Position numbers and translations under genes: made by a program. From the NCBI GenBank assembly GCA_045612805.1, contig JAZKZR010000010.1:263965-327964 (forward strand): 64,000 nucleotides of DNA. The letters run 5' to 3'. A model generated the notes under the pieces. That model did not search any database and was not told the origin of the DNA. It saw only the letters and a list, made by a program, of their open reading frames with translations. This document shows positions 5,342-24,395 of the stretch, piece by piece (within the stretch, counting starts at the first letter, position 1; each line of letters starts with the position of its first letter). The DNA is from Candidatus Enterousia sp. (lineage in GTDB: Bacteria > Pseudomonadota > Alphaproteobacteria > Rs-D84).

Positions 5342-6229
5342 TCAAATTTTGCTGGTTAATTCTTCAAAAGATTTGCATGCGTCTTCAAAGGATAATCTAT
5401 CTGTATTTTTTGCATATGACATATTTGCGACGTATTGTTCATAATCAGATTTGAATTGTTTGTTGTGTTGTAACAGGGTAATAACATCTTTTACGCACAC
5501 ATCAAAGGTATATTGAGTCCGCATGCGATGGCTCATGTCGGATTTAAAAACATCAAGCATATTAGATTTAAAGGTTCTATCAATATCAATCTTTGGTGCC
5601 AAGAAAAACAGATCGTGCAGATGTCGCATATCCGCAGGATTGTATTGAGATTTTTCTGTATCTGTTGATAAAATTCGCCATAAAAATGAACTGATTTTAT
5701 CTATAGTAGTATCTTCCAATGATACACATTTCAATTTGAATCCAGCATTTGTGCCAGCCAATTTGTCATAGAAAGAAGATATTTCTTTTTCCTCTGGTGC
5801 ATAAAATAAATTATCTGTAAAAAACACCTCTAATTTTATATAAGGTCGCAATGCAGAGTGTGTTTGAACAATGTTTTCTGTGTCTACAAATCTAAACTCT
5901 ATTTTACTGCTTTCGGGGACGGGTTCGGCAATAAGTTCAAAGCCATCCAAACTATGTGCAATATCAGTTAGCATTTTGCGAACATTGGCAGTTGATTTGG
6001 GGCGCGGAACAAATCTAAAATCAGCATCTTCACTGAAACGCTTGGTTAGCTCGTCATATGCACACACTAAACTGGTGCCGCCACCAAATATTAAATCACC
6101 ATCAGCAGAATGAAACCTTGATACCAACTGTTGAATAACTTGAATCAGAAAATGCTCTTTGATCGGAAAAGCAATATCACAACCCTTTTCAATAGCTATT
6201 TGTTCAAAAAGTTCCATATTTAAAGACAT
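5342..6229 (-). CDS. AbiEii/AbiGii family nucleotidyltransferase toxin
   Basis: Motifs FGGGTSL, RFSEDADF, DKISS, RHLHD. Confidence 0.9.
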   Translation of the reverse strand: MSLNMELFEQIAIEKGCDIAFPIKEHFLIQVIQQLVSRFHSADGDLIFGGGTSLVCAYDELTKRFSEDADFRFVPRPKSTANVRKMLTDIAHSLDGFELIAEPVPESSKIEFRFVDTENIVQTHSALRPYIKLEVFFTDNLFYAPEEKEISSFYDKLAGTNAGFKLKCVSLEDTTIDKISSFLWRILSTDTEKSQYNPADMRHLHDLFFLAPKIDIDRTFKSNMLDVFKSDMSHRMRTQYTFDVCVKDVITLLQHNKQFKSDYEQYVANMSYAKNTDRLSFEDACKSFEELTSKI

Positions 6230-7492: not shown

Positions 7493-8701
7493 ATGGCAGA
7501 ACAATGGAAATGTTATACTAAACCGTTTCGGGATACATGGATACATCTGTTGCATTCGGATGTGAATTTACAGGTAAGTGACGGGACAATCCCTGGGCTA
7601 TTCCTGCGATATTCGGCGGCAACACGCACTATCAGGTTTTTCTTGGGATGTAAAATAGATAAAAAGAAATGTAACCTTTATATCGGGCGATATAACGATT
7701 ATTCAATCAAAGATATTCGCGAAATGGCGTGGAATATGCGGCATCAAATTGCCCAGGGCCAAGACCCACGTCGCGAAAGAATAGAACAACAAATGAAAGA
7801 AAAAGAGGCACTTGGTGAAAAATTCCAAGATTTATTCCCTCAATACATGGATAAATACGCAAAAGTTTACAAGAAACCACGAACACAAGACTCTAATTGG
7901 GGCGAATATCGATTATATCTAGGGCCTATGTTTGATAAATTATACATGCGTCAGATAGAAGAAAAGCATGTAATGGATGCCTATGCTAAATGGGTAAAAA
8001 GGACATCGTTTTCAACCGCAAATAAAGCTTTATCATTATTCTCAAATTTCTGGGATTGGTGCGAAATGTATAAATACGTAGATCGTAATACTAACCCATG
8101 CAAATATGTTCGCAAAGGGGCAAACAAAGCCTATAAACCACAAATACTGGATCAAGACGGCTATCGCGCATTATCGCATGCGCTGGAAGTCGGGCCAAAA
8201 GTATCAAGAATGCATCCACGATTATTTAATGCACTGCGGGTTTTAATGCTGACCGGATGTCGCGCATCAGAAATAACAGGGCTGGAAGTAGACGAACTGG
8301 CACTGATGCACAAAGTGATACATTTGAAAGACAGCAAGACCGGTGCCAGGGATGTTAAGTTATGTGATGCGGTTATACCGTATTTACAGGCTGCGCTGGA
8401 TGAAGCAACTGCCTTGGGCAGTAAATATGTCTTCCCAGGTGTAGGCAATATCCGTCGCCCAATAAATAACATTCGCAAACCGTTTGAATGGGCACTGGAA
8501 TACGCAAAGTTACCACACATGCGAATACACGACCTACGACACTCGTTCATCAGCATGGGGGCGAATATAGGCGAAAATATGGCCGCCATGAAAGAAGCGG
8601 CAGGTCACAGTCGTATAACCACCACCGAAGGCTACACTCATATCATGGACAGCAGCACCTATCGCGCGATAAATAACGTTGCAAATGCAATATGTGGCTA
8701 G
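7493..8701 (+). CDS. Tyrosine integrase with N-terminal arm-binding domain
   Basis: Catalytic motifs LTGCRASE, KTG, HDLRH, GHS...TEGY. The N-terminus (D.TIPGLFLR...IGRY...GQDP) is typical of P4-like integrases. Confidence 0.95.
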   Translation: MAEQWKCYTKPFRDTWIHLLHSDVNLQVSDGTIPGLFLRYSAATRTIRFFLGCKIDKKKCNLYIGRYNDYSIKDIREMAWNMRHQIAQGQDPRRERIEQQMKEKEALGEKFQDLFPQYMDKYAKVYKKPRTQDSNWGEYRLYLGPMFDKLYMRQIEEKHVMDAYAKWVKRTSFSTANKALSLFSNFWDWCEMYKYVDRNTNPCKYVRKGANKAYKPQILDQDGYRALSHALEVGPKVSRMHPRLFNALRVLMLTGCRASEITGLEVDELALMHKVIHLKDSKTGARDVKLCDAVIPYLQAALDEATALGSKYVFPGVGNIRRPINNIRKPFEWALEYAKLPHMRIHDLRHSFISMGANIGENMAAMKEAAGHSRITTTEGYTHIMDSSTYRAINNVANAICG

Positions 8702-10818: not shown

Positions 10819-13800
10819 ATGGCTTTTAATGAAGATACCAGAGTAAAAATTCCCGCAATCTTAACGTTGACAAGATTGGGGTATAAATATTTGTCCTTGA
10901 AAGATAGACAAGATATTGATCCAAAAACAAACATATTTACTGATATCTTTTTTGAATGCCTGCAACAATTGAACCCAAACACAGAGGAAGAGGATCTAAA
11001 AAAGTATTTTAATAAATTGCAAACAATGTTGGATAATGATGATCTGGGGAAAGAATTTTACAATGCTTTGATAAACTCTTCAGGCATAAAACTAATAGAC
11101 TGGGACAATATAGGTAGAAATCAACTGCATGTTTGTACAGAGTTAACATGTGGAAATAAAGACGATGATAATTTTAGGCCAGATATCACGTTGCTCATGA
11201 ACGGCATGCCTTTAGCTTTTATAGAGGTCAAAAAGCCAAACAATCGCGAGGGTATATTGGCAGAACGAAACAGGATCAATGTTCGATTTAAAAATAGAAA
11301 GTTCCGTCGTTTTATCAACATCTCTCAGATTTTATTATTTTCTAACAACATGGAATATGACGAAGAAGATGTTGTGCCAATTCAGGGGGCTTTTTATGCT
11401 ACAGCTAGCAAAAGTAAAGCATTTTTTAATCAGTTCAAAGAAGAACCAAATAACAAAGCTTATTTGTATGGGTTGTTGCGTGATGAAAATGATAAAATAG
11501 AAAACGAAGTTCTGCGTGACACGAATTATGCAGTCATGAAATCCAGTAAAGAGTTTGAGGTTAATAAACAACCGGATACTCCAACAAATAGAGCGATAAT
11601 TTCTTTGTTTGCTCCAGAACGTATATTTGATTTTCTAAAATATGGCTTAGCGTACGTTGAATACGACGATGAAGATGGAAAGCATGTTTTGCAGAAACAC
11701 ATTATGCGTTATCCACAATTTTTTGCTAGCAAGGCAATACAAAACAAACTGGATAAAGGAGTAAAGAAAGGCATAATTTGGCATACCCAAGGGTCTGGGA
11801 AAACAGCATTGGCATACTTTAATGTGCGCTGGTTAACGGATTACTTTGCAAAAAAGAAGATATTACCAAAATTTTATTTCATTGTTGATAGAATCGATTT
11901 GCGAAATCAGGCGGCTAGTGAATTTTCAATTAGGGGGCTGAAAGTTAACAGTATAGAAAGCAAGGAAGATTTTATAAGTGATCTTAAGAAAAAATCTACG
12001 ATCAGCAGTACAACTGGCGAACGTGAAATAACAGTGTTAAATATTCACAAGTTTTCAGAAGATGCCAGAGCAACAACAGAAAAAGATTATGATATAAAAA
12101 CACAACGCGTTTATTTCATAGACGAAGCACATCGTAGTTACAATCCTAAAGGTAGTTTCTTGGCCAACTTGGCTCAGTCTGATCCAAATGCGATTATAAT
12201 TTCTCTTACTGGCACTCCATTGTTGGGTAAAGGTGAAAAACGTATCGCCAGTACAGGTATATTTGGGGACTATATACACAAGTATTATTACAACCAGTCT
12301 ATTGCTGATGGTTATACTTTACGTTTGATTCGTGAGGAAATAGAAACAGAATACAAAATACAATTAAAGGAAATTTTTGAAAAGTTAGAAGTCAAACAAG
12401 GTGATGCCCAAAAGAAACAGATTCTTGCTCATAAGAAATTCTGTACGCCATTATTGGAATACGTTGTAACAGATTTACGCAAAGCTCGCATACAGCACAA
12501 TGATGATTCTATCGGTGGTATGGTGGTTTGTGATAGTTCTGAACAAGCGGAAATGTTATCAAAGTTGTTCAAAGAAAATTATGAAGACAAAGCGAAAGAC
12601 AAACATACTCCGAATACAGCAGCTCTGATTTTACATAACGAAGGTGATAAACAGAGCAGAAAAGATGACATCAAAAGTTTTAAGAACGGAAAGATAGATA
12701 TTCTGTTTGTTTATAACATGTTGTTGACAGGGTTTGATGCACCACGATTGAAAAAACTGTATTTAGGACGTGTCATAAAGGAACACAATCTATTGCAAAC
12801 ATTGACTCGAGTCAATCGTCCATATAACGATTTTCGTTACGGTTACGTGGTGGATTTCGCTGATATTAAAGCCGAATTTGATAAGACAAATCAAGCGTAT
12901 TGGAAAGAATTACAGTCCGATTGGGGCGATGATATGAAGGGGTATGAAAACCTTTTCAAGTCAGCAGACGAGATAAAAGAAGACATAGAAAACATAAAGC
13001 ATGTTCTGTGGGAATATGATACAAAGAATGCGGAGATATTCCAACAACAAATAAGCGAAATAAAAGACAAGTCGTTGCTTTTAGACTTGGTAAAAGCACT
13101 TAAAAAAGCGGCAGAGTTGTTCAATCTTATCAGATTGAATGGTTATACCGATCTGTTGGATAAATTAGATTTTCATCAATTTAAAATACTCCAATCAGAG
13201 GCAGAACATAGAATAGCTCTTATCAACCAGAAAGAGGCATTGTCTTCGGGTGAAGATATAACAGGTTTGTTGAACGAAGCTTTGGAAGACTCGATATTTA
13301 TGTTTCGTAAAACTGGTGAAACACAATTAGATTTGGCAGCAAATACGTTTAAGGACACATTGCACAGAACTCGTGAGATGATGGGGCAAACTCCAGATAA
13401 AAAAGATCCAGAGTGGATTTCTTTGAAAGACGAAATAGAACGTTTGTTGAGAGATAAAAACTGGGAAGAGGCATCTGCAGAGGATATAAACGAAGGCACT
13501 AAGATACTAGAAGGTATTTATAGCAGAATTGCCGAATTAAACCGCAAAGACTCATTGCTTGCTCAGAAATACAATAATGATGTGAAGTATGTTCGGTTAC
13601 ACAAAGAATTTATGCGACAAGGCTTATCTAAAAACGAACAACAGGTATTTGATATCCTTATCGGAATAAAGAACGATACGGACGAAAAATTACTAAATTC
13701 AGACATTTTGAATAGCAATGAAAGTTACTTTGATGGCTATATACAACAGCAGGTTGTATTAAAATTCCGAGATGGTGGCGTTCATCTTAATCCGGAAGTT

Positions 13801-13866
13801 GCAAAACTTGTAAAAAATGCTATTGTCAAAGAGTACACAAATGAAAGAGAAGGTATTGTAGAATGA
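10819..13866 (+). CDS. hsdR: Type I restriction endonuclease subunit R
   Basis: RPD...IEVKK nuclease motif, HTQGSGKT Walker A, DEAHRS, LTGTP, MLLTGFDAP, QTLTRVNR. Confidence 0.97.
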   Translation: MAFNEDTRVKIPAILTLTRLGYKYLSLKDRQDIDPKTNIFTDIFFECLQQLNPNTEEEDLKKYFNKLQTMLDNDDLGKEFYNALINSSGIKLIDWDNIGRNQLHVCTELTCGNKDDDNFRPDITLLMNGMPLAFIEVKKPNNREGILAERNRINVRFKNRKFRRFINISQILLFSNNMEYDEEDVVPIQGAFYATASKSKAFFNQFKEEPNNKAYLYGLLRDENDKIENEVLRDTNYAVMKSSKEFEVNKQPDTPTNRAIISLFAPERIFDFLKYGLAYVEYDDEDGKHVLQKHIMRYPQFFASKAIQNKLDKGVKKGIIWHTQGSGKTALAYFNVRWLTDYFAKKKILPKFYFIVDRIDLRNQAASEFSIRGLKVNSIESKEDFISDLKKKSTISSTTGEREITVLNIHKFSEDARATTEKDYDIKTQRVYFIDEAHRSYNPKGSFLANLAQSDPNAIIISLTGTPLLGKGEKRIASTGIFGDYIHKYYYNQSIADGYTLRLIREEIETEYKIQLKEIFEKLEVKQGDAQKKQILAHKKFCTPLLEYVVTDLRKARIQHNDDSIGGMVVCDSSEQAEMLSKLFKENYEDKAKDKHTPNTAALILHNEGDKQSRKDDIKSFKNGKIDILFVYNMLLTGFDAPRLKKLYLGRVIKEHNLLQTLTRVNRPYNDFRYGYVVDFADIKAEFDKTNQAYWKELQSDWGDDMKGYENLFKSADEIKEDIENIKHVLWEYDTKNAEIFQQQISEIKDKSLLLDLVKALKKAAELFNLIRLNGYTDLLDKLDFHQFKILQSEAEHRIALINQKEALSSGEDITGLLNEALEDSIFMFRKTGETQLDLAANTFKDTLHRTREMMGQTPDKKDPEWISLKDEIERLLRDKNWEEASAEDINEGTKILEGIYSRIAELNRKDSLLAQKYNNDVKYVRLHKEFMRQGLSKNEQQVFDILIGIKNDTDEKLLNSDILNSNESYFDGYIQQQVVLKFRDGGVHLNPEVAKLVKNAIVKEYTNEREGIVE

Positions 13867-15485
13867 ACGATTACACGATCCAGACAAAACAGTTAATCGA
13901 TGAACTGAAAGCTATTTGCACCAGTAATGGTCTTGGTAATGATGGAAATGAATTTAAGATCATAACACAGGTCTTTTTGTACAAGTATTTAAACGACAAG
14001 TTTATGCACGAGATTAAACTGGCGGATCCAAAATTACATAATGCAGGAAACGTAGAAGCAATATTACAGAACTATTCGGACGATGATTATGAAATGTTGT
14101 TAATGTCTCTGCATCCTTCGGCGGCTCGACTGAAAAGAGAGCATTTCCTGTCTTTCTTGGCTGGTCATGCAAATGATGACGATTTTCATAAACGGTTTGA
14201 TGATACATTGGCGGATATAGGTAGATTTAATGAGGCCATATTCTCTATCAAAACAGATAGCGGAGCAAAGGTAGTCTTGTTTGATGAATTATCACAATTC
14301 ATTACTGATCCAAGCAAGCGAGACGGTTTCTGTCGTGCTATTATAGCAAGATTGACCGAGTTTAGTTTCGAACACGTATTCGATGCAGGATACGATTTCT
14401 TTGCAACAATATTTGAATACTTGATTAAAGATTACAATAAAGACGGCGGCGGCAAATATGCTGAGTATTATACACCTCATGCCGTTGCTCGTATAATGTC
14501 AGCTATTTTGGTTGACGGTAACCCGACAAATGTAAAGGTATATGACCCATCGGCAGGCTCGGGAACTTTGTTGATGAGTATCGCACACGCTATCGGTGAC
14601 GATAAATGCACAATATATTCACAAGATATATCGCAGAAATCGTCTGGGATGTTGCGTCTGAATCTTGTGTTGAATAATTTGGTTAGTTCAATTCCTAACG
14701 TTATTCAGGGTAATACCATATTATCCCCAAGACATTTTGATAAAGAGGGCAATTTACAAAAGTTTGACTATATAGTATCTAATCCGCCATTTAAATTAGA
14801 TTTTAGCGATTTCAGGGCAGATTTGGATAAGCCAGGTAATAACGAAAGATTCTTTGCTGGCATACCCGCTATACCGAATAAATCAAAGGATAAAATGGCA
14901 ATATATTTGCTTTTTATTCAGCATATAATGTTTTCTTTAGCGGACGAGGGCAAAGCGGCTATCGTTGTGCCAACCGGATTTATTACCGCACAAAGTGGTA
15001 TTGAACGCAAGATACGTGAAAGGATGATAGAGAAACAGTGGTTGAAAGGTGTTATTTCTATGCCATCCAATATTTTTGCAAATACTGGAACAAACGTGTC
15101 TGTTATATTCTTGGATAAATCAAATAAAGACAAAGTTGTATTGGTTGATGCCAGCAAACTTGGTACTAAGGTAAAAGATGGTAAAAATCAAAAGACAATT
15201 TTATCACCAGAAGAAGAACAAAAAATCATAGATGCATTCAGAAATAAGCAAGCTGTTGATGATTTTAGTGTGGTTCTGTCTTACGATGAAATAAAAGACA
15301 AAAACTATTCGTTCTCGGCCGGTCAGTATTTTGATGTAAAAATTGAATATGTCGACATTACGGCAGAAGAATTTGAAGCGAAAATGACCGCCCACAAACA
15401 AGCATTAAAAGATATGTTTTCTCAATCACACGATTTGGAAAACAATATCATAGAACAGTTAGGTAAATTGAAGTTTGGAGAATAG
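13863..15485 (+). CDS. hsdM: Type I R-M N6-adenine methyltransferase subunit M
   Basis: EYYTP, YDPSAGSGTLL and NPPF motifs; 4-bp overlap with hsdR. Confidence 0.97.
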   Translation: MNDYTIQTKQLIDELKAICTSNGLGNDGNEFKIITQVFLYKYLNDKFMHEIKLADPKLHNAGNVEAILQNYSDDDYEMLLMSLHPSAARLKREHFLSFLAGHANDDDFHKRFDDTLADIGRFNEAIFSIKTDSGAKVVLFDELSQFITDPSKRDGFCRAIIARLTEFSFEHVFDAGYDFFATIFEYLIKDYNKDGGGKYAEYYTPHAVARIMSAILVDGNPTNVKVYDPSAGSGTLLMSIAHAIGDDKCTIYSQDISQKSSGMLRLNLVLNNLVSSIPNVIQGNTILSPRHFDKEGNLQKFDYIVSNPPFKLDFSDFRADLDKPGNNERFFAGIPAIPNKSKDKMAIYLLFIQHIMFSLADEGKAAIVVPTGFITAQSGIERKIRERMIEKQWLKGVISMPSNIFANTGTNVSVIFLDKSNKDKVVLVDASKLGTKVKDGKNQKTILSPEEEQKIIDAFRNKQAVDDFSVVLSYDEIKDKNYSFSAGQYFDVKIEYVDITAEEFEAKMTAHKQALKDMFSQSHDLENNIIEQLGKLKFGE

Positions 15486-15489
15486 CAAA

Positions 15490-17079
15490 ATGAAAATGAG
15501 AAGGTTGCATATTCATAATTATAGATCAGTAAAAGATTCTGATATTGATATGCAAGATTATTCTTTGCTTGTAGGAAGTAATAACGTTGGGAAAAGCAAT
15601 GTAATTGATGCAATACGTTGTTTTTATGAGGATATTAAATTTGAACCAAGTGATTTGTGTAACAAGCACGATCCAGAAGATAGATTGTGTTGGATAGATG
15701 TAATTTTTGATTTGACGGATGATGAATATGATAGTTTAAAAGAAGAATATAAAATTGAAAAGAATAAATTAAAAGTAAGAAAGTTGTTGGTTCAAGATGG
15801 AGAAAGGAAGCCAGCGATATATGGGTATACTGCCAAAGGTATGGAAGATAGTCCTTTTTATGGCGCAAAAAATGTGCAACAAGGAAAATTAGGGCACATT
15901 GTTTATGTTCCAGCGATTTTAGATGTAAAAGAAAATACAAAGTTGACAGGATCGTCTTCTTTAAGAAACTTGTTAGAAATAGCTTTTAATAGCACCCTAG
16001 AAAAGGATGTAAATTATCAAGAAGTAGCAAAAAGTATAAATAAATTAACAAATTCTATGAAAGCAGAAGGTTCTGGGGCATTATCTAAACTAGAAACAGA
16101 TATAAATAATGAGCTTGATGATTGGGGTATTAACATAAATTTTAAATTGCGAACACCATCTGCGAATGACATACTTAAAAATATGCTTGATTATAATATG
16201 CAAGAAAGTGATCAGGAGATTTCGTTAGAACGTTTGGGGACAGGTTTTCAAAGACATTTTATATACAATCTTATAAAATTAAGCAGTAATTATACGGAAG
16301 TAAAAGAAAAGAAAGATAAAGATTTTACCCCAAACATGACGTTGTTGTTATTCGAAGAGCCAGAAGTGTTTCTTCATCCAACAGCTCAAGAAAATTTATC
16401 TTTGTATTTACGCAAGTTTGCATCACACAGCACAAACCAAGTTTTGATTTCTACACATTCTAGTCAGTTTGTATCTATGAATATTATGGATATTTATTCT
16501 ATAATAAGGTTAGAAAAACAAGATGATATTACTCATATTTATCAAATGAAATTATCTATAGATGAATTAGAAAAATGTAAAAATTTAGTGTTTTTCGATA
16601 GACCAAGGAGTGATTTGTTTTTTGCTACAAAGGTTATTTTAGTCGAGGGTGCTACAGAATATATGTTTTTTAATTATATAAAACAGAAAAATTTAATTGA
16701 TACAGAAAGCACAACGAAAGTTTGTTGTATTGATACGTTGGGTAAGCAAAGCATGCCATATTTCATTAAAATATTAAAAAATTTTCATATAAAGTATTCA
16801 GTGCTATGGGATCTTGATACAAAACCAAATGTTGACCCAATGACAAATCAGCATAATAAGGCAATAGTCGAATCTTTTGATGAGCTAAAAGAATATCACT
16901 ATTGTTTTGAGAAAAATATAGAAGTGTTTTTGACTGGTGAAGAATGGGATCATAATGGAAACAAGGTAGTATCTTTTATAAAGAAAGTAGAGAATGGGGA
17001 GGTGGCGGACGAGAAAAAAGATGAGCTGATACAGATTTTTCAGAATTTAATCACCAAGCAAGAAGGTTTAAATGAATAA
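15490..17079 (+). CDS. OLD-family ABC ATPase-TOPRIM nuclease
   Basis: Walker A GSNNVGKS, signature LGTGFQR, Walker B FEEPE..LHP, STHS; TOPRIM motifs ILVEGATE and DLD. ATG 15490 follows GGAG. Confidence 0.9.
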   Translation: MKMRRLHIHNYRSVKDSDIDMQDYSLLVGSNNVGKSNVIDAIRCFYEDIKFEPSDLCNKHDPEDRLCWIDVIFDLTDDEYDSLKEEYKIEKNKLKVRKLLVQDGERKPAIYGYTAKGMEDSPFYGAKNVQQGKLGHIVYVPAILDVKENTKLTGSSSLRNLLEIAFNSTLEKDVNYQEVAKSINKLTNSMKAEGSGALSKLETDINNELDDWGININFKLRTPSANDILKNMLDYNMQESDQEISLERLGTGFQRHFIYNLIKLSSNYTEVKEKKDKDFTPNMTLLLFEEPEVFLHPTAQENLSLYLRKFASHSTNQVLISTHSSQFVSMNIMDIYSIIRLEKQDDITHIYQMKLSIDELEKCKNLVFFDRPRSDLFFATKVILVEGATEYMFFNYIKQKNLIDTESTTKVCCIDTLGKQSMPYFIKILKNFHIKYSVLWDLDTKPNVDPMTNQHNKAIVESFDELKEYHYCFEKNIEVFLTGEEWDHNGNKVVSFIKKVENGEVADEKKDELIQIFQNLITKQEGLNE

Positions 17080-17557
17080 AAAAGATTTGCTTGTTAGTTT
17101 GTTAAAAGAATCTGTTGATAAGTTATATCAGGAACAGGTTTGTTTGTTAGTTCGTTCTGGTATGGAACAAGCAGCGGTTGCTAGAGTGTTTTTTTACATG
17201 CAGATGGCACTTTATACAGATCCTAGGTTTATTCAGTTCAGATCGTTGTATTTAGATTCTGAATATAATAAAAATGGTGTTGCACCGAAAATATTATATG
17301 GTGCTTCTACTAGACCGGATTTAATTCTTCATAATAGATGTTGTGGAGAAACATCAACAAATGTATTGGTTGTAGAATTTAAAGTTGAAAATGAAAATAT
17401 AGAAGATGACTATAGAAAATTACGTGGTTACACATCTCAATATGAACAATATAAATATTTTTTAGGTGTTTCTGTTAAATTAAATAGAGAAAATGCGTTG
17501 TACAAGTATTTCCAAAAAGGTCAGGAAAAAGATGAAGCAGGATTATGTGTAGAATAA
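17072..17557 (+). CDS. Putative PD-(D/E)XK nuclease
   Basis: DSEYNK, RPDLILH and VVEFK motifs; overlaps the end of the OLD gene. Confidence 0.65.
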   Translation: MNKKDLLVSLLKESVDKLYQEQVCLLVRSGMEQAAVARVFFYMQMALYTDPRFIQFRSLYLDSEYNKNGVAPKILYGASTRPDLILHNRCCGETSTNVLVVEFKVENENIEDDYRKLRGYTSQYEQYKYFLGVSVKLNRENALYKYFQKGQEKDEAGLCVE

Positions 17558-17574
17558 GAAGACAGGAGTAAGTA

Positions 17575-18162
17575 ATGCCCCAAAAAGATAGATTAAGAAG
17601 TTTGTATGATTTTCAGTATGGTTTAGGTAATGTTAATCCTGATAATGGTGGACAATATCCTGTTTACGGCAGTAATGGTATTATAGGGTACTATGATCAG
17701 TATAATTCTGAAGACGCGCCTGTTGTGGGGCATATTGGGGCAAATGCGGGCGTGGTTGTTTTTGGTAGAGGAAAACATTATGTTACATACAATGGGGTTA
17801 TTTGTAAAACCAAAGACGGAATAAATAGCAAATACGCATATTATGTGTTGTTAAATGCTAATCCTAAGAAGTTAACACGAGGCAGTACCCAACCTTTTAT
17901 ATCCTATGATATATTGAACGATATTCCTATTTTAAACCACGAACAACAAGATCAAATAAAAATAGGGAATGTTCTTTCTGCGCTGGATGAAAAAATAGAA
18001 TTGAATAACAAAATCAATCAAGAGCTAGAAAAAACGGCGAAAGATCTATATAACTATTGGTTCGTTCAGTTCGACTTTCCTGACGGAAATAAACGACCGC
18101 TTCTTTCCCGCATTTTCCACCTGTTAAAGCAAACCAGAAATTTGGAGGTGTGTCTTGCCTGA
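17575..18162 (+). CDS. hsdS: HsdS N-terminal half cassette (TRD-A), currently truncated at the inversion site
   Basis: One TRD plus the conserved helix LDEKIELNNKIN..LE..AKDLYNYWFVQFDFPD. Homology stops at KRP (18099) and an unrelated tail follows. Confidence 0.88.
   Translation: MPQKDRLRSLYDFQYGLGNVNPDNGGQYPVYGSNGIIGYYDQYNSEDAPVVGHIGANAGVVVFGRGKHYVTYNGVICKTKDGINSKYAYYVLLNANPKKLTRGSTQPFISYDILNDIPILNHEQQDQIKIGNVLSALDEKIELNNKINQELEKTAKDLYNYWFVQFDFPDGNKRPLLSRIFHLLKQTRNLEVCLA
18075..18099 (+). repeat. hsdS inversion site 1
   Basis: CTTTCCTGACGGAAATAAACGACCG is the exact reverse complement of 20044-20068. Confidence 0.92.
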
Positions 18163-19420
18163 CATAAAAGCATTTCGTCTTAAGGATATAGGTCTATCAC
18201 AAACAGGACCGTTTGGAAGCCAATTGCATGAAAATGACTATGTTTCTGTTGGAACCCCAATAGTCACTGTCGAACATTTACAAGAGGAGGCCTTTTCTAC
18301 TCAAAATCTTCCTTTTGTATCTGATAAAGATGTAAAACGCTTATCTAAATACGTGTTAAAAGAAGGCGATATTGTTTTCAGTAGAGTCGGCTCTGTTGAT
18401 AGAAGTACATATGTATCTAAGAAAGAAGAAGGATGGTTGTTTTCTGGGCGTTGTTTAAGAGTTAGAATAGATAAAAACAAAGCAAATCCAAAGTTCATAA
18501 GCTTCTATTTCAGACTTCAGAAGTTTAAAAACATGATGCAAAACATATCTGTAGGGGCGACGATGCCATCCTTAAACACACATTTGATGGATAATATAAA
18601 ACTTTATCTGCCAAGTTTACCCGAGCAAAATAATATCGCTGAAGTATTAGCCTCTATAGATGAAAAAATTTTATTAAACAAAAAATTAAATGATGAATTA
18701 GAAATTGCAGCAAAGGATCTATACAACTATTGGTTTGTCCAATTTGATTTTCCTGATAAAGATAAACGACCGTATAAATCCAGCGGCGGCAAGATGGTTT
18801 ATAACGAGATTCTTAAACGTGAAATTCCAGAAGGTTGGGAAGTTGAAAGTATTGCTGATAACAAACTCTCAAAAATCTTAAAACCAGGAATAAAACAATT
18901 TGATGGACAAAAGATATATTTACCGACTGCCGCTGTAGAAAACGATCGTATTATAGATAAATCAAATTTGATTACTTATGACAATCGCGAAGGTCGTGCC
19001 AATATGGAACCTGTTGATAATTCTGTATGGTTTGCCAAAATGAAAAACACAAAGAAAGTATTATATTTTGGAGATTATTCATCTCAACGAATAAGTCAAA
19101 CAATACTTTCTACTGGTATGCTAGGCTTAAAATGTGTTGAAAACGCTTTAGAATATATATGGAACTTTGTAAACGATGATTCTTTTGAAGCTGTAAAAAA
19201 CAAGTTGTCTCATGGGGCTACTCAAGAAGGCGTCAATAATGATGATTTGTTGTATTTTCCAATGCTAATTCCATCAATAGAAACCTTACGTAATTATTCT
19301 GTGTTAGTAAAAGATTTATACAAACAGAAATATTTCAATGAAATTGAAAACGAATGTTTGGCAGAACTCAGGGATTTCTTGCTTCCGATGTTAATGAACG
19401 GTCAGGTTTCAGTTTCTTAA
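18155..19420 (+). CDS. hsdS: Type I R-M specificity subunit S, full length (TRD-B + TRD-C)
   Basis: Two TRDs, central YWFVQFDFPD...YKSSGGKMVYN..LKREIPEGW and terminal LRDFLLPMLMNGQV; TTG start after GGAGG. Confidence 0.95.
   Translation: MPDIKAFRLKDIGLSQTGPFGSQLHENDYVSVGTPIVTVEHLQEEAFSTQNLPFVSDKDVKRLSKYVLKEGDIVFSRVGSVDRSTYVSKKEEGWLFSGRCLRVRIDKNKANPKFISFYFRLQKFKNMMQNISVGATMPSLNTHLMDNIKLYLPSLPEQNNIAEVLASIDEKILLNKKLNDELEIAAKDLYNYWFVQFDFPDKDKRPYKSSGGKMVYNEILKREIPEGWEVESIADNKLSKILKPGIKQFDGQKIYLPTAAVENDRIIDKSNLITYDNREGRANMEPVDNSVWFAKMKNTKKVLYFGDYSSQRISQTILSTGMLGLKCVENALEYIWNFVNDDSFEAVKNKLSHGATQEGVNNDDLLYFPMLIPSIETLRNYSVLVKDLYKQKYFNEIENECLAELRDFLLPMLMNGQVSVS
18762..18804 (+). repeat. hsdS inversion site 2
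   Basis: 43 bp ATAAACGACCGTATAAATCCAGCGGCGGCAAGATGGTTTATAA is the exact reverse complement of 20012-20054. Confidence 0.92.
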
Positions 19421-20022
19421 TCTGATACTGACACTTGGCCATTCATAAGCATAGGCAATAAAAAGTCACGCAAATTAGACAATATTTCATTTTCTTGTTT
19501 GTTTTGTAATATTTGATTGATGATTTGCTTGTTTCGCATTTCAAAGTTTTTTAATAGCGTATCATTTGGAATTGCTATATTGAGGTTTCCCAATATTTCA
19601 CCATTTAAAGATGCCCTTGTTGATGCCATACAAGCATTATATAAATAGTTATAAACAGAATCCGATTCTAAAAATTTACGTATATATTCTTGTCCATATA
19701 GTACATTAACTTTTATCTTTGATAGTGCTACATTGTATGCTCCCGCTAACCCATATCTAACACGTCCAGCATCGCCATATTTATCCATCATTATATCAAA
19801 AACATCGCACACTTTATTATTCTTAGACTCCTTGATATATGTTACATTTGTATCGCCTGCATAATCTCTATTTTGAATAAATCTAACATATCCATTTTGC
19901 GGTTGATAAATAAAAGTTGCTTTTGGTGGTTGTGCACCACTTATCCATTCAACGATATCAAGTAGATTTTTAACTTCCCAGCCCTCAGGAATTTCGCGTT
20001 TTAGTACGTCATTATAAACCAT
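19417..20022 (-). CDS. hsdS: Inverted HsdS C-terminal half cassette (TRD-D)
   Basis: MVYNDVLKREIPEGW...LRDFLLPMLMNGQVSVSD; the frame extends upstream through FPDGNKRPYKSSGGK to 20067. Confidence 0.9.
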   Translation of the reverse strand: MVYNDVLKREIPEGWEVKNLLDIVEWISGAQPPKATFIYQPQNGYVRFIQNRDYAGDTNVTYIKESKNNKVCDVFDIMMDKYGDAGRVRYGLAGAYNVALSKIKVNVLYGQEYIRKFLESDSVYNYLYNACMASTRASLNGEILGNLNIAIPNDTLLKNFEMRNKQIINQILQNKQENEILSNLRDFLLPMLMNGQVSVSD

Positions 20023-20068
20023 CTTGCCGCCGCTGGATTTATACGGTCGTTTATTTCCGTCAGGAAAG
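20012..20068 (-). repeat. hsdS inversion site 3 (partner of sites 1 and 2)
   Basis: Composite of the 25-bp and 43-bp inverted repeats, which overlap at the shared core ATAAACGACCG (20044-20054). Confidence 0.92.
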
Positions 20069-20108
20069 AGGTGTGCTAGCCTATGAGTTACATAAAAAGA
20101 GGTATGGT

Positions 20109-20705
20109 ATGATTTATGGATATATAAGGGTTAGTACGAATACACAAACGACCGATAATCAGAAATTTGAAATAGAACAATTCGCAAAAAAACAGGGAAT
20201 AAGAATAGATAAATGGATAGAGGAAACTATTAGCTCCAGGCAAGAGCTATCTAAACGTAAGTTAGGTCTTTTAATAAAACAAATACAAAAAGGCGATGTT
20301 TTAATATCAAGCGAATTATCTCGTCTTGGACGAGATTTGTTGCAGATAATGGGAATTTTAAACCATTGTATGAATATAGGGGCTGATATATGGACAATAA
20401 AGGACAATTATCGGTTAGATGCTGGAATACAAGGTAAAATATTAGCTTTTGCGTTTGGGTTAACTGCAGAGCTAGAAAGAAATCTCATTTCACAACGCAC
20501 AAAAGAGGCATTAGCGGCTCGTAGAGCAGCGGGTATGGTGTTAGGCCGGCCTTACGGTAGTAAAAGTAGTTATTTAAAACTGTCCGGACGGGAAAACTTT
20601 ATATGCAATATGCTGAATAGAGGATGTTCAAAGACGCAGATAGCCAAAAAATTATGTGTTAACAGAGAGACATTAACAAATTTCATAAATAGTCAGGGGT
20701 TGTAA
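20109..20705 (+). CDS. Serine recombinase / DNA invertase, Mpi-like family
   Basis: MIYGYIRVST (catalytic Ser), SELSRLGR, WTIKDNYRL...KILAFAFGL.AELERNLISQRTKEAL, LGRP and a C-terminal HTH. ATG 20109 follows AAGAGG. Confidence 0.93.
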   Translation: MIYGYIRVSTNTQTTDNQKFEIEQFAKKQGIRIDKWIEETISSRQELSKRKLGLLIKQIQKGDVLISSELSRLGRDLLQIMGILNHCMNIGADIWTIKDNYRLDAGIQGKILAFAFGLTAELERNLISQRTKEALAARRAAGMVLGRPYGSKSSYLKLSGRENFICNMLNRGCSKTQIAKKLCVNRETLTNFINSQGL

Positions 20706-21680
20706 TTATATAGTGAATTTTTTAGGTAGTATTAAAGGCACGTTTTCAAAATTGTTAACAAGTCTAGTTTGTATAACTGGACCGTTTTGGGTTTGGGTGA
20801 CAATTGGTTGAAATTTGGTTGTGCTATTGCGTCTGTTTTTAACAAACTGCTTTAATCCATCATCTAAGTATGATGATATAACAAAGCGATTAGCATTAAA
20901 AATAGCAGGTTCGTTAATTCTGGAAACAGTTCTTTGTGCATATTTCCAAAATTTTGATATTTTACCGTATGACATTTGTCCGGGGCTCACTTTGGTAAAA
21001 TCAGAAAATCCTGGTTGATAAACTTCTGGTTGCACAACCAATTTAGGTGATATTCTCAAAAATGTATGCGGATCCAACACAAAGCCTAATGGTTGATATA
21101 GCGGTGGAACGGTATCGTTAAGACATAGATAATGAGCTGGAAAATCACATGTTATAAAAGGCATATCAGTAAAATTATAAGTTAAATGCCAATCATATGC
21201 ATATAGCAACATACCTATCTGACGGGCTTGTTGTAAATTACGTTTTTTTAATGCGAAGTTTAAATCCTGAGATTTTGGATCTACATTTTGTCCAAGTAAT
21301 TGTAGAGATAAATAGTCGTACTCTTTTCTTGCTGGTGACATTGCAAACAAAATAGCAAGCCATGTTGCAAAATAGTACCTATCATGGTCTGAAATTTTCT
21401 CCCTTTTTAACCCTTGTAAAAATGGCCCAATATGTGGTTCTAAAGCTTTCAAATGATCCGATAAATATGTATCTGTGCCTTCTGTATCTAATTTATCCCA
21501 ACCTAATTCATAACATATACGTTTTGTTGGGGCTTCAAACCATCTGTCTTCTTGTCTATCATAAACATGTAATTTATTTGTGTTTTTATCAATAAAACGA
21601 CGTAAGTAAACCTGTGGCACAAAGTGGTCTTTGTTGTCTTGTTTGGGTAAAGATTTTGTTCCGTTGCTCATGTGTACCAT
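20706..21680 (-). CDS. DUF4238 domain protein
   Basis: N-terminal HFVPQVYLRRF and later FITCDFP, both characteristic of DUF4238. Confidence 0.8.
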   Translation of the reverse strand: MVHMSNGTKSLPKQDNKDHFVPQVYLRRFIDKNTNKLHVYDRQEDRWFEAPTKRICYELGWDKLDTEGTDTYLSDHLKALEPHIGPFLQGLKREKISDHDRYYFATWLAILFAMSPARKEYDYLSLQLLGQNVDPKSQDLNFALKKRNLQQARQIGMLLYAYDWHLTYNFTDMPFITCDFPAHYLCLNDTVPPLYQPLGFVLDPHTFLRISPKLVVQPEVYQPGFSDFTKVSPGQMSYGKISKFWKYAQRTVSRINEPAIFNANRFVISSYLDDGLKQFVKNRRNSTTKFQPIVTQTQNGPVIQTRLVNNFENVPLILPKKFTI

Positions 21681-22260: not shown

Positions 22261-22284
22261 AAAAAGCCCCGTTTGGGGCTTTTT
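22261..22284. terminator. Terminator hairpin at the end of the GmrSD gene
   Basis: AAAAAGCCCC-GTTT-GGGGCTTTTT. Confidence 0.85.
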
Positions 22285-24007
22285 AATCAAGTTCTTTCAA
22301 ATAATTGTTCAGCATATCTGTTAGAAGTTGACGACGTCTCGCAATAAATTCTGGGTATTTATCGATATTCCACAGAGTTTTATCTATAGGAATACAATGT
22401 TTTCTGAAGTTTTCTTCGCCTTTCTTTTCAAGAACTTCAGGAAGATATACAGCAGGATCATCATTCTTTATTAAAACATTGGTACGTTTTACAATGAATG
22501 TCTGGTTTGCTATGTCGTTAATTTCATCTCTATCATATCTATCTTTCAAAAAATCCTGAGGAAATATGTGGTGAAATTCGATCTGGTTTCGATTTGCTAC
22601 ATTGTTCATACTGATAACTTGTGGTGTGTTCCAATCCATTGCACCGTTGTGTCTCATCACAGTAAACATGGTCTTAAAAATACCACTGGCAGTATTTTTA
22701 TTCTCAAAATCGATTGGTTGAAAATCCAGTCTACCAAATTGTATTTTAAGATTGTCTAACAATCCTTGTAAATTGTTGTTTTTTATCGCCAGCAAATCTT
22801 GGTCCAAGTAAGTTTCTGATGAACCACGAGAATAACGCCCCTTTGCGTTGGCCACAAGGAACCATTTTTTAATCAGTTTTGCTTCATTCTCGGTTAAAAT
22901 ATTATTCTTTGTATGGTATAAGAATGACAAAGAAACTATAAAGTAGGGGGACGAAAGCGTGGCATCTGTTTCAAGACCAAATGTATTTTTCAATTCATCC
23001 AATGCGTGTTCCAATGCTTTCTTCGCTTTTGGCCAAGCACTTTCCAGTTCTTCTTTTGTTAAAGACGGAACCACTCTAAATTTTGATTGTGATGTCATTA
23101 TGGATATGAGAGTTCTTACAATAATACCTATACTTAAATCCCAGCCATACTTTTCACAATAATCAGTTTCTTTGTTAAATTTAACTAGAGCTCCCTCAGT
23201 TTCTTCTGTGGTTGGCCATTTTGCGGTTATGTGAGCCAGGGCTAGATCAGATCCTTTTAATTTTGTGCCGGCTTGATTAACTCTAACGAATATTTCAGTT
23301 ACTTCCTCATAGGATTTTGATGCCGGTAAAGTCTGAACTTGCAAATCTCGATGCTCAATATTTTGCAATGCCTGGAATCGTTTTAGATATTTGTCTAGCC
23401 GTTTTTTGCCTTCTGGTGTTGTGGTATCTCCAGCTCTCTTTATGATGTCTTGGATATCAACTTTGCCAGAAAAAACTCCTACAACAGAAATCCAATTGTT
23501 CTGACTTTTCACCAATGGGTTTTCTACGACAAAAGCTCGTCGATTCATGTCATCAATGCGGTTTTTGTTTTCTTCCGCATCAGATGTAACCTTAATATCT
23601 TCATCTTCTTCAAACTCTGTTTCGTTATCATCGTCAGTAGCAACTTTGGTATTTTCTAATTTATCAGGATGGTCTAAATTAAAATAGATGTCAATTGCAC
23701 GTTTTCTGCCGCGTACAATGACAGGTTCGCCACAGAGAATAGCCTTTAGAGATGTTAAACGTTGCTGACCATCTAATAGAAGATAGTAAGATTCATATTT
23801 TGTATCTTCTTGAGAAACAGCAAAGTCTCGTGTAGGTATTTTTTGAGTTGTTTCCCATCTTAAAATTGTGCCAACTGGATAGTTTCTATATAAAGAATCA
23901 AGCAAATCTCTCACCTGTGTAGATTTCCAAATATATGCTCGTTGCATTTCTGGTAAACGCATTCTGTTTGATTTTATTTCGTCAATGAGGCTTCTTAATT
24001 CTGTCAT
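22283..24007 (-). CDS. GmrSD-family (DUF262 + DUF1524/HNH) type IV restriction-like nuclease
   Basis: LPEMQRAYIW, LLDGQQRLTS, IFVRVNQAGT.L and C-terminal EFHHIFP...N...N. Likely start is 24007 after GGAG. Confidence 0.88.
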   Translation of the reverse strand: MTELRSLIDEIKSNRMRLPEMQRAYIWKSTQVRDLLDSLYRNYPVGTILRWETTQKIPTRDFAVSQEDTKYESYYLLLDGQQRLTSLKAILCGEPVIVRGRKRAIDIYFNLDHPDKLENTKVATDDDNETEFEEDEDIKVTSDAEENKNRIDDMNRRAFVVENPLVKSQNNWISVVGVFSGKVDIQDIIKRAGDTTTPEGKKRLDKYLKRFQALQNIEHRDLQVQTLPASKSYEEVTEIFVRVNQAGTKLKGSDLALAHITAKWPTTEETEGALVKFNKETDYCEKYGWDLSIGIIVRTLISIMTSQSKFRVVPSLTKEELESAWPKAKKALEHALDELKNTFGLETDATLSSPYFIVSLSFLYHTKNNILTENEAKLIKKWFLVANAKGRYSRGSSETYLDQDLLAIKNNNLQGLLDNLKIQFGRLDFQPIDFENKNTASGIFKTMFTVMRHNGAMDWNTPQVISMNNVANRNQIEFHHIFPQDFLKDRYDRDEINDIANQTFIVKRTNVLIKNDDPAVYLPEVLEKKGEENFRKHCIPIDKTLWNIDKYPEFIARRRQLLTDMLNNYLKELD

Positions 24008-24192
24008 TTGATGGCTCCAAAAATTTAAAATAGGTTTACTAACCCATAAATTATACATCATAAATAATAAAAAAGCTAGGCAATGGATAAGATTATCGTA
24101 AGCATATTTGCAAAATGTTCAAAATATGTAGACAATTTTACGAGTTGAAAAAGCATAAGTTATTCATAAGACGACGGATAGGTTACGGATCC

Positions 24193-24319: not shown

Positions 24320-24395
24320 TGGCTCGGGCAACTGGACTCGAACCAGTGACATACGGATTAACAGTCCGTTGTTCTACCGACTGAACTATGCCCGA
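24320..24395 (-). tRNA. tRNA-Asn(GTT)
   Basis: Acceptor stem TCGGGCA/TGCCCGA, anticodon arm ACGGA-CTGTTAA-TCCGT, T-loop GGTTCGAGTCC, encoded CCA; 76 nt. Confidence 0.97.

Follow-up and report, generated by a model that had tools for sequence, protein, structure and literature searches.

A three-site hsdS shufflon beside an Mpi-family serine recombinase gene in Candidatus Enterousia has inverted in nature

Phase-variable Type I restriction-modification (R-M) systems re-programme phage defence and the methylome. The present study concerns the hsdS array of such a system in Candidatus Enterousia sp. (assembly GCA_045612805.1), together with the small serine recombinase gene that adjoins it; both lie in a 64,000-nt stretch of contig JAZKZR010000010.1 (positions 263,965 to 327,964, forward strand), which we call the window and number from its first letter. 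In a survey that sorted 827 hsdS-linked invertases, clades 1–4 and HvsR are tyrosine recombinases (Huang 2020, PMC7672463), in agreement with a first, sequence-only reading of the window, which had stated that the characterized hsdS invertases belong to this class. The survey also contains seven loci at which a Type I system with several hsdS genes adjoins a serine-family recombinase, gives NCBI hits for its clade 5 in Mycoplasma only and states that serine-catalysed hsdS inversion was unreported. Mpi-family recombinases have been found enriched beside gene-altering inversions, including inversions in Type II R-M systems, with the analysis of recombinase sites named as future work (Milman 2023, PMC9881135, Table 2). 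An hsdS shufflon of Bacteroides fragilis was ascribed to nearby tyrosine recombinases (Ben-Assa 2020, PMC7641763), and B. fragilis Mpi is known as the master invertase of 13 dispersed regions, 7 of which are capsule promoters (PMC4747536, PMC5903667). All of these papers are cited for selected sections and tables. In our literature search, no main text turned up in which an Mpi-family enzyme is paired with an hsdS array or its site is defined, and supplementary tables may list such loci. A switch of the kind described below is already anticipated by the surveys of Huang 2020 and Milman 2023, and the novelty implied by the sequence-only reading was set too high, because serine recombinases near hsdS invertons (PMC7672463) and the enrichment of the Mpi family (PMC9881135) are in print. 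What the locus adds is a serine invertase of the Mpi family, an in-frame site defined at 26 bp and an architecture of three sites with split and fused forms; it adds no new principle.

The array is a genuine shufflon, with inversion having taken place in nature, and we consider it probable that it is switched by the neighbouring Mpi-family serine recombinase, acting at three 26-bp in-frame sites. Its parts, in which TRD stands for target recognition domain and X1, X4 and X5 for metagenomic runs introduced below, are as follows:

17575..18097, + strand: TRD-A with central conserved region (Methylase_S, 2.4e-13), outside the invertible DNA, with its own ribosome-binding site
18084..18109, + strand: site 1, CGGAAATAAACGACCGCTTCTTTCCC, central AC at 18096-18097, dyad 9/12
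18155..18770, + strand: TRD-B with central conserved region (Methylase_S, 1.3e-20), own GGAGG and TTG start, inside the invertible DNA
18757..18782, + strand: site 2, TAAAGATAAACGACCGTATAAATCCA, central AC at 18769-18770, dyad 7/12
18771..19420, + strand: TRD-C with C-terminal conserved region
19417..20045, − strand: TRD-D with C-terminal conserved region (Methylase_S, 1.3e-6), a silent 3′ half-gene without N-terminal TRD
20034..20059, − strand: site 3, CGGAAATAAACGACCGTATAAATCCA, central AC at 20047-20046, dyad 8/12
20109..20705, + strand: Mpi-family small serine recombinase, 198 aa from ATG, 210-aa open reading frame (ORF) from GTG at 20073
18098..20045: DNA inverted by site 1 × site 3 (B, site 2, C and D), with opposite-strand joints in X1, X4 and X5
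18771..20045: DNA predicted from the repeat to be inverted by site 2 × site 3 (C and D)

This layout, with A, B and C pointing towards an opposed D and the invertase gene beyond it, had been proposed from the letters and is confirmed by ORFs, Pfam matches and repeats. A, B-C and D each match Pfam Methylase_S. B-C is a full HsdS (18155-19420, + strand, 421 aa; PADLOC Specificity_I, 4.5e-79), and the A frame, in the orientation of the window, runs past 18097 for 20 unrelated residues to a stop at 18162 and totals 195 aa. When the crossovers are carried out in silico, the frames of all four predicted products stay open (A-D, 383 aa; A-C, 390 aa; B-C, 421 aa; B-D, 414 aa), so that the proposed in-frame exchange holds. 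As the TRDs are dissimilar (66 of 205 aligned positions identical between A and B, 84 of 216 between C and D), different target sequences are expected. The C-terminal conserved regions of C and D lie tail to tail with overlapping stops (19417-19420) and encode the same 17 residues. A repeat search across this junction (19370-19470) gave no inverted repeat of 14 nt or more at the DNA level, and through synonymous divergence the two tails may escape hairpin formation or the creation of an unwanted recombination site.

Among the closest systems described are the hsdS invertons with tyrosine invertases, namely pneumococcal SpnD39III/ivr with PsrA (CreX/IvrR) and others in clades 1–4 and 6 of Huang 2020: they share with our locus the Type I operon with one expressed hsdS, silent partial hsdS sequences in opposed orientation, in-frame inverted repeats within conserved regions, an invertase encoded at the locus and combinatorial TRD exchange that yields several specificities. 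The locus studied here differs from them in having a serine instead of a tyrosine recombinase and one short dyad site type at three places, and in that the N-terminal TRD is exchanged too, with a fused A-x on the one side and a truncated A plus a self-starting B-x on the other. Multi-site hsdS rearrangement is likewise a feature of the Mycoplasma pulmonis hsd loci, but HvsR is a tyrosine recombinase. B. fragilis Mpi resembles our recombinase in family (NCBIfam NF009949) and in size, both being small serine recombinases of about 200 aa; here, however, three local sites are present, all in coding sequence and without a further copy in the genome. Master action on many dispersed promoters, which marks the founding member and not the sequence family as such, is not seen. 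The B. fragilis Mpi sites may also carry an ACG..CGT inner dyad; the sequence-only reading gave ARACGTWCGT as their core and counted an 8/10 match here, of which the two mismatches would fall on the two central positions.

Each of the three sites spans about 26 nt and consists of two AT-rich 12-nt arms that end in ACG and CG(T) about an asymmetric central AC (12-2-12). Crossover sites of the Hin/Gin type are imperfect dyads of about 26 bp with an asymmetric central dinucleotide, and judged against these, our three sites are laid out like the crossover site of a small serine invertase. For the dyad scores of 9, 7 and 8 out of 12, a background was obtained from 3975 positions in 17000-21000, where at least 7 is reached in 2.3%, at least 8 in 0.45% and at least 9 in 0.05%. 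The shared 11-mer ATAAACGACCG has three copies in the window, all at the sites, as against 0.05 expected, and none of 100 shuffles reaches three. The shared core and the imperfect dyad about an asymmetric dinucleotide, both noticed on first reading, thus stand. So do the repeats: sites 1 and 3 lie in an inverted repeat of 25 nt with 100% complementarity (18075-18099 vs. 20044-20068), and sites 2 and 3 in one of 112 nt with 83% complementarity (18749-18860 vs. 19956-20067), within which the 43-nt exact stretch claimed earlier can be read. The conserved regions of A and B also form a direct repeat of 114 nt (75%; 17986-18099 and 18659-18772), which breaks off precisely at the shared core. Site 3 combines the left arm of site 1 with the right arm of site 2, a hybrid make-up that would be expected of a partner in exchange with both of them. 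The right arm of site 1 does not code for HsdS and is still a good half-site, and the four different half-site sequences resemble one another. The sites are located in frame in the linker that follows the central conserved helix of HsdS, with site 3 about 50 nt upstream of the recombinase. When the genome was searched with a 15-mer at up to two mismatches, eight matches were obtained, exact only at sites 1 and 3; the six remaining ones have two mismatches and flanks that look unrelated, so that the 975-kb genome holds no other close copy of the site. A further genome match, 88% over 33 nt, is located at C8:4721-4753.

That inversion between sites 1 and 3 has occurred in nature follows from public metagenomes. 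Logan contigs of four runs from four studies (X1, X2, X4 and X5) were compared with 17000-21200, and both 1/3 junctions are present across the contigs of three of them (X1, X4 and X5). In X1, where 8 of 10 placed pieces are at least 99% alike to the window, a 522-nt contig joins 20338..20044 (minus strand, from within the recombinase gene) to 18100..18326; this joint (18100/20044) has 0 and 1 differences, a side of 227 and 25 shared letters. The reciprocal side is seen in X5, in which 19430..18076 (minus strand) leads into 20068..20620 on a 1907-nt contig (joint 18076/20068) and a 606-nt contig covering D stops at 20068, its loose end reading as the reverse complement of the A conserved region. 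Logan assemblies are built on 31-letter words, and since the 25-nt repeat is shorter than these, the 1/3 junction contigs need reads that truly span the junctions and should not be artefacts of the assembly graph. The fourth run, X2, keeps the orientation of the window through site 1; its contigs break at 20044, the recombinase contig begins exactly there, and a 79-nt contig (19972-20050) has a depth of 35, approximately the sum of its neighbours (16.5 and 18.3), like a collapsed repeat. X2 also carries 583 other letters in place of 598 nt of TRD-B (18117-18716) but differs in C and D at only 4 of 1187 positions; TRD cassettes are therefore exchanged between strains.

The recombinase belongs to the Mpi family, as had been stated from the letters. 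It scores 285.9 and 286.3 bits against the NCBIfam equivalog model NF009949 (cut-off 272), the match covering model positions 1-196 of 203 and starting at residue 13 of the 210-aa ORF, and it matches Pfam Resolvase (2.7e-32). Among solved structures it is closest to the Gin invertase (4m6f, 3.4e-15), and its catalytic domain is Gin-like: YIRVSTNTQ aligns with YVRVSTNDQ of Gin including the catalytic serine, the position at which the S-to-A Gin mutant chain 3uj3 differs. With its frame intact, the protein is a good candidate for the enzyme that catalyses the inversion. The locus resembles the Hin/Gin/Cin/Pin systems in its imperfect dyads of about 26 bp, the asymmetric central dinucleotide, inversion between inverted sites and a recombinase gene beside a site, and differs from them in its three sites, two of which are in direct orientation, in its target, an R-M specificity gene, and in a genome without a match to HTH_8. 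Systems of the Hin/Gin type depend on Fis together with an enhancer. A search for the Fis-type HTH_8 domain gave no match in our 96.8%-complete genome, as compared with matches in 7 of 14 control genomes, and Hin-like control by Fis and an enhancer is therefore unlikely. Two more weak serine-recombinase-like matches (C7:43329-43889 and C10:166351-166818; 54.6 and 52.2 bits, well short of the Mpi cut-off) occur in the genome, one of them with an internal stop.

Scanning genome contigs with the recombinase yielded 204 relatives, 80 of which were kept for a survey of their neighbours and for a tree. Eleven loci (L001-L011) have a recombinase at least 65% identical to ours, and in eight of them it adjoins hsdS (seven by tblastn, L003 by Pfam); in the other three the contig runs out on the hsdS side, and in L005 and L010 it does so within the site itself. 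ACG-AC-C with AT-rich arms is common to all 19 sites of the window and seven loci. The three-site layout recurs in L002, L006, L008 and L009, of which L002 is in the state of the window and the other three are in the fused, 1/3-inverted state, and the site lies about 50 nt from the recombinase start codon in L001, L002, L004, L005, L006 and L010. In L002 and in L007-L009 (two of the latter three labelled Melainabacteria or Gastranaerophilales), the right arm of site 1 is conserved as well; this arm is non-coding, and protein constraint does not explain its conservation. The nearest loci are labelled Alphaproteobacteria, and the close homologues come from assemblies labelled Alphaproteobacteria and Melainabacteria. 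In L002 (665-6594), the closest relative with full context, hsdR is directly followed by a partial A-like fragment lacking the N-terminal part of A, and tblastn detected no hsdM, OLD-family gene or 161-aa ORF (see below); the same module seems to be present there in a decayed copy.

In the maximum-likelihood tree of these 80 sequences, in which B. fragilis Mpi itself is absent, the hsdS-linked recombinases, that of the window among them, fall on the same side of a branch supported at 97/88. Other targets adjoin more distant family members: 27 of the 80 loci are next to Type IIG genes (Eco57I/MmeI with TaqI_C) with inverted TaqI_C specificity fragments (e.g., L030, L053, L055, L058, L060, L068, L075 and L076 within L012-L080; L094 is a further example), and five are next to SusC/D genes. 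The Type IIG-linked loci resemble ours in the recombinase family, in the switching of an R-M specificity part by in-frame inversion and in a repeat beside the recombinase that also has AAACG. Their target is the C-terminal specificity domain of a single-chain enzyme, however, their recombinases form a different subclade, and their repeat ends in ...AAAACGCT at several loci as compared with ...AAACGACCG here. Such a Type IIG layout is annotated on the Lactococcus cremoris plasmid pJM1F. A plasmid collection contained 96 records with a homologue of the recombinase, all below 60% identity; none of the three plasmids examined was hsdS-linked, one having a Type IIG layout (with an unlinked hsdS elsewhere) and two having no R-M specificity gene beside the recombinase. 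One SusC/D-linked contig (L015, with L016) is, over its whole length of 10546 nt, a perfect palindrome with two recombinase copies, which the assembly most likely created at an invertible SusC/D region.

In the mechanism that we propose, dimers of the recombinase would bind the dyads, cut at the central AC and exchange strands between oppositely oriented sites, and exchange at the central dinucleotide of opposed sites would invert the intervening DNA. Four states would result. In the state of the window, the operon encodes a truncated A half-subunit besides full-length B-C, with D silent; inversion between sites 2 and 3 would give truncated A plus B-D; inversion between sites 1 and 3 gives fused A-D with B-C antisense; and a further inversion would give A-C with B-D antisense. 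Each full-length HsdS would direct the methyltransferase and the endonuclease to a different bipartite target. Ongoing switching within populations, the 2/3 and A-C states and a changed methylation specificity are what this scheme would predict.

Several points weigh against such a recombinase-driven switch. As each contig gives one orientation, the contigs cannot reveal whether a single population switches; at an identity of at least 99%, the window and X1 are oriented oppositely, and X1 may itself be the source sample. Contigs were placed with a minimum likeness of 90, a setting at which foreign joints are possible, the A-D joint of X4 (18099/20043) has a shorter side of only 35 letters, and the recombinase part of X5 differs from the window at 59 of 553 positions, which makes X5 a different strain. 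The sequence-only reading had also foreseen the 2/3 and A-C junctions. The 1/3 junctions are present in the contigs of three of the four runs, and both states occur among relatives, but neither the 2/3 joint (18772/20044) nor the A-C junction occurs among the pieces listed from the four runs; for the 2/3 joint this is uninformative, because contigs of this kind probably fail to cross an exact repeat of 43 nt. As direct repeats, sites 1 and 2 are a pair between which an unconstrained serine recombinase could delete TRD-B, so that a filter against deletion is needed. The conserved HsdS linker could partly account for the conservation of the coding arms of the sites. Control of the Hin/Gin type, finally, uses Fis and an enhancer, in the face of a genome without a Fis-type match.

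Three other explanations have to be set against these observations. The inversions may be relics, i.e., rare past events that differ between strains at a locus that has ceased to switch, a silent or inactive recombinase being one possible cause. The single orientation per contig would fit this view, as would the lack of a detectable hsdM and of the N-terminal part of A in L002, which suggests that such loci decay, and a promoter scan of 17000-20900 with nothing above chance (11 promoter-like sites, 17.1 expected); the corresponding terminator scan gave one terminator-like site (20762-20782, after the recombinase), with 1.6 expected. We nevertheless regard a relic as unlikely: the frame of the recombinase is intact and scores above the family cut-off, sites 1 and 3 agree at every one of 25 nt (100%), the opposite orientation occurs in a contig that is at least 99% identical to the window, and several assemblies, those of close relatives as well as X2, break at the site. 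A second explanation leaves the recombinase without a role and has the repeats in the conserved regions of paralogous hsdS genes recombine by the general, RecA-type homologous pathway. hsdS domain shuffling by homologous recombination has reportedly been described for Lactococcus plasmids, and the repeats (112 nt at 83%, 114 nt at 75%) do sit in homologous coding sequence. The 1/3 exchange that was observed, however, uses only 25 nt of identity, the identity stops exactly at the shared core, non-coding arms (the right arm of site 1 and the left arms beside the recombinase) are conserved across phyla around the same ACG-AC-C centre, and site and recombinase are adjacent in every informative close relative, all of which makes this explanation very improbable.

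It is also conceivable that another recombinase acts in trans, either the P4-type tyrosine integrase encoded at 7493-8701 or a Xer-type enzyme. The genome has five Phage_integrase matches, one of them this gene 9 kb upstream, which counts against the neighbouring serine recombinase as the agent, and the characterized hsdS invertases are tyrosine recombinases (in the sections of Huang 2020, PMC7672463, cited above). Yet the upstream integrase has the arm-binding domain typical of island integrases, and in the informative close relatives the serine recombinase always pairs with the array. Tyrosine recombinase sites typically have a core with a spacer of 6-8 nt, to which the 12-2-12 dyad is unlike, and we judge the involvement of such an enzyme to be very improbable. 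Switching by the adjoining Mpi-family recombinase is the reading with which we proceed.

The locus offers a concrete case for serine-invertase switching of hsdS, with a defined site, a crossover dinucleotide, a natural inverted allele and cross-phylum relatives in both states, and its recombinase with three 26-bp sites forms a compact module for asking how a small serine invertase picks inversion over deletion without Fis. Our results also suggest that the annotation "master invertase Mpi family" hides subclades specialised for different specificity genes. A wider picture that joins these strands is possible but rather doubtful at present. According to it, the hsdS-linked recombinases would be a dedicated, Fis-independent Mpi subclade that moves between phyla as a cassette with its hsdS array; the 26-bp site would be written in frame into the HsdS linker; besides the C-terminal TRD, the three sites would switch the architecture of the gene between fused A-x and split A plus B-x, in which latter state the half-subunit A possibly dimerises on a palindromic target, giving more than four methylomes; a built-in topological filter would prevent 1/2 deletion; and sister subclades would do the same for Type IIG and SusC/D genes, making the Mpi family a general engine of in-frame specificity switching and not a promoter flipper. 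Engineered N-terminal half-subunits of EcoR124I dimerise and read a palindromic target.

The array stands at the end of a Type I operon on the + strand, in the order hsdR, hsdM, OLD-family nuclease, 161-aa ORF and hsdS, and the set is complete, with hsdR, hsdM, A and B-C on the + strand and D on the − strand. Neighbouring features are:

5342-6229: AbiEii, in the low-GC stretch
7493-8701: P4-type tyrosine integrase with arm-binding domain, 9 kb upstream of the array
10819..13866, + strand: hsdR, 1015 aa (TIGR00348, 1.3e-83; PADLOC REase_I)
13863..15485, + strand: hsdM, 540 aa (TIGR00497, 1e-49; PADLOC MTase_I, 1e-264)
15475..17079, + strand: OLD-family ATPase/TOPRIM nuclease (Pfam AAA_15 and OLD-like_TOPRIM; PADLOC Old, 8.8e-71)
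17072..17557, + strand: 161-aa ORF (PADLOC PD-Lambda-3_A, 5.9e-9, weak)
20706-21680: DUF4238, in the low-GC stretch
22283-24061: GmrSD-like HEC-05 gene, in the low-GC stretch
24320-24395, − strand: tRNA-Asn, in the low-GC stretch

The GC content is about 0.35 across a stretch of about 40 kb that holds the locus (window about 1-36000; C10 about 260-300 kb), as compared with 0.437 for the genome, and DUF4917 and glycosyltransferase genes are encoded there as well. The mobile island proposed in the sequence-only reading is plausible by this GC content and the P4-type integrase, but its borders did not emerge: the tRNA-Asn gene (24320-24395) has no repeat of at least 13 nt elsewhere in the window, and no att repeat was found. 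The low-GC stretch is probably a horizontally acquired defence island. The OLD-family nuclease and the 161-aa ORF (15475-17557), the latter without matches in Pfam and NCBIfam (17072-17557), sit between hsdM and hsdS with overlapping ends, and a second defence module appears to be embedded within the R-M operon. The genome, 975 kb in size at 96.8% completeness, holds one hsd locus and one Mpi-family recombinase. In a gut bacterium that is uncultured and whose genome measures about 1 Mb, the switch may be a major source of within-population diversity; the runs that contain the locus sequence are animal gut metagenomes.

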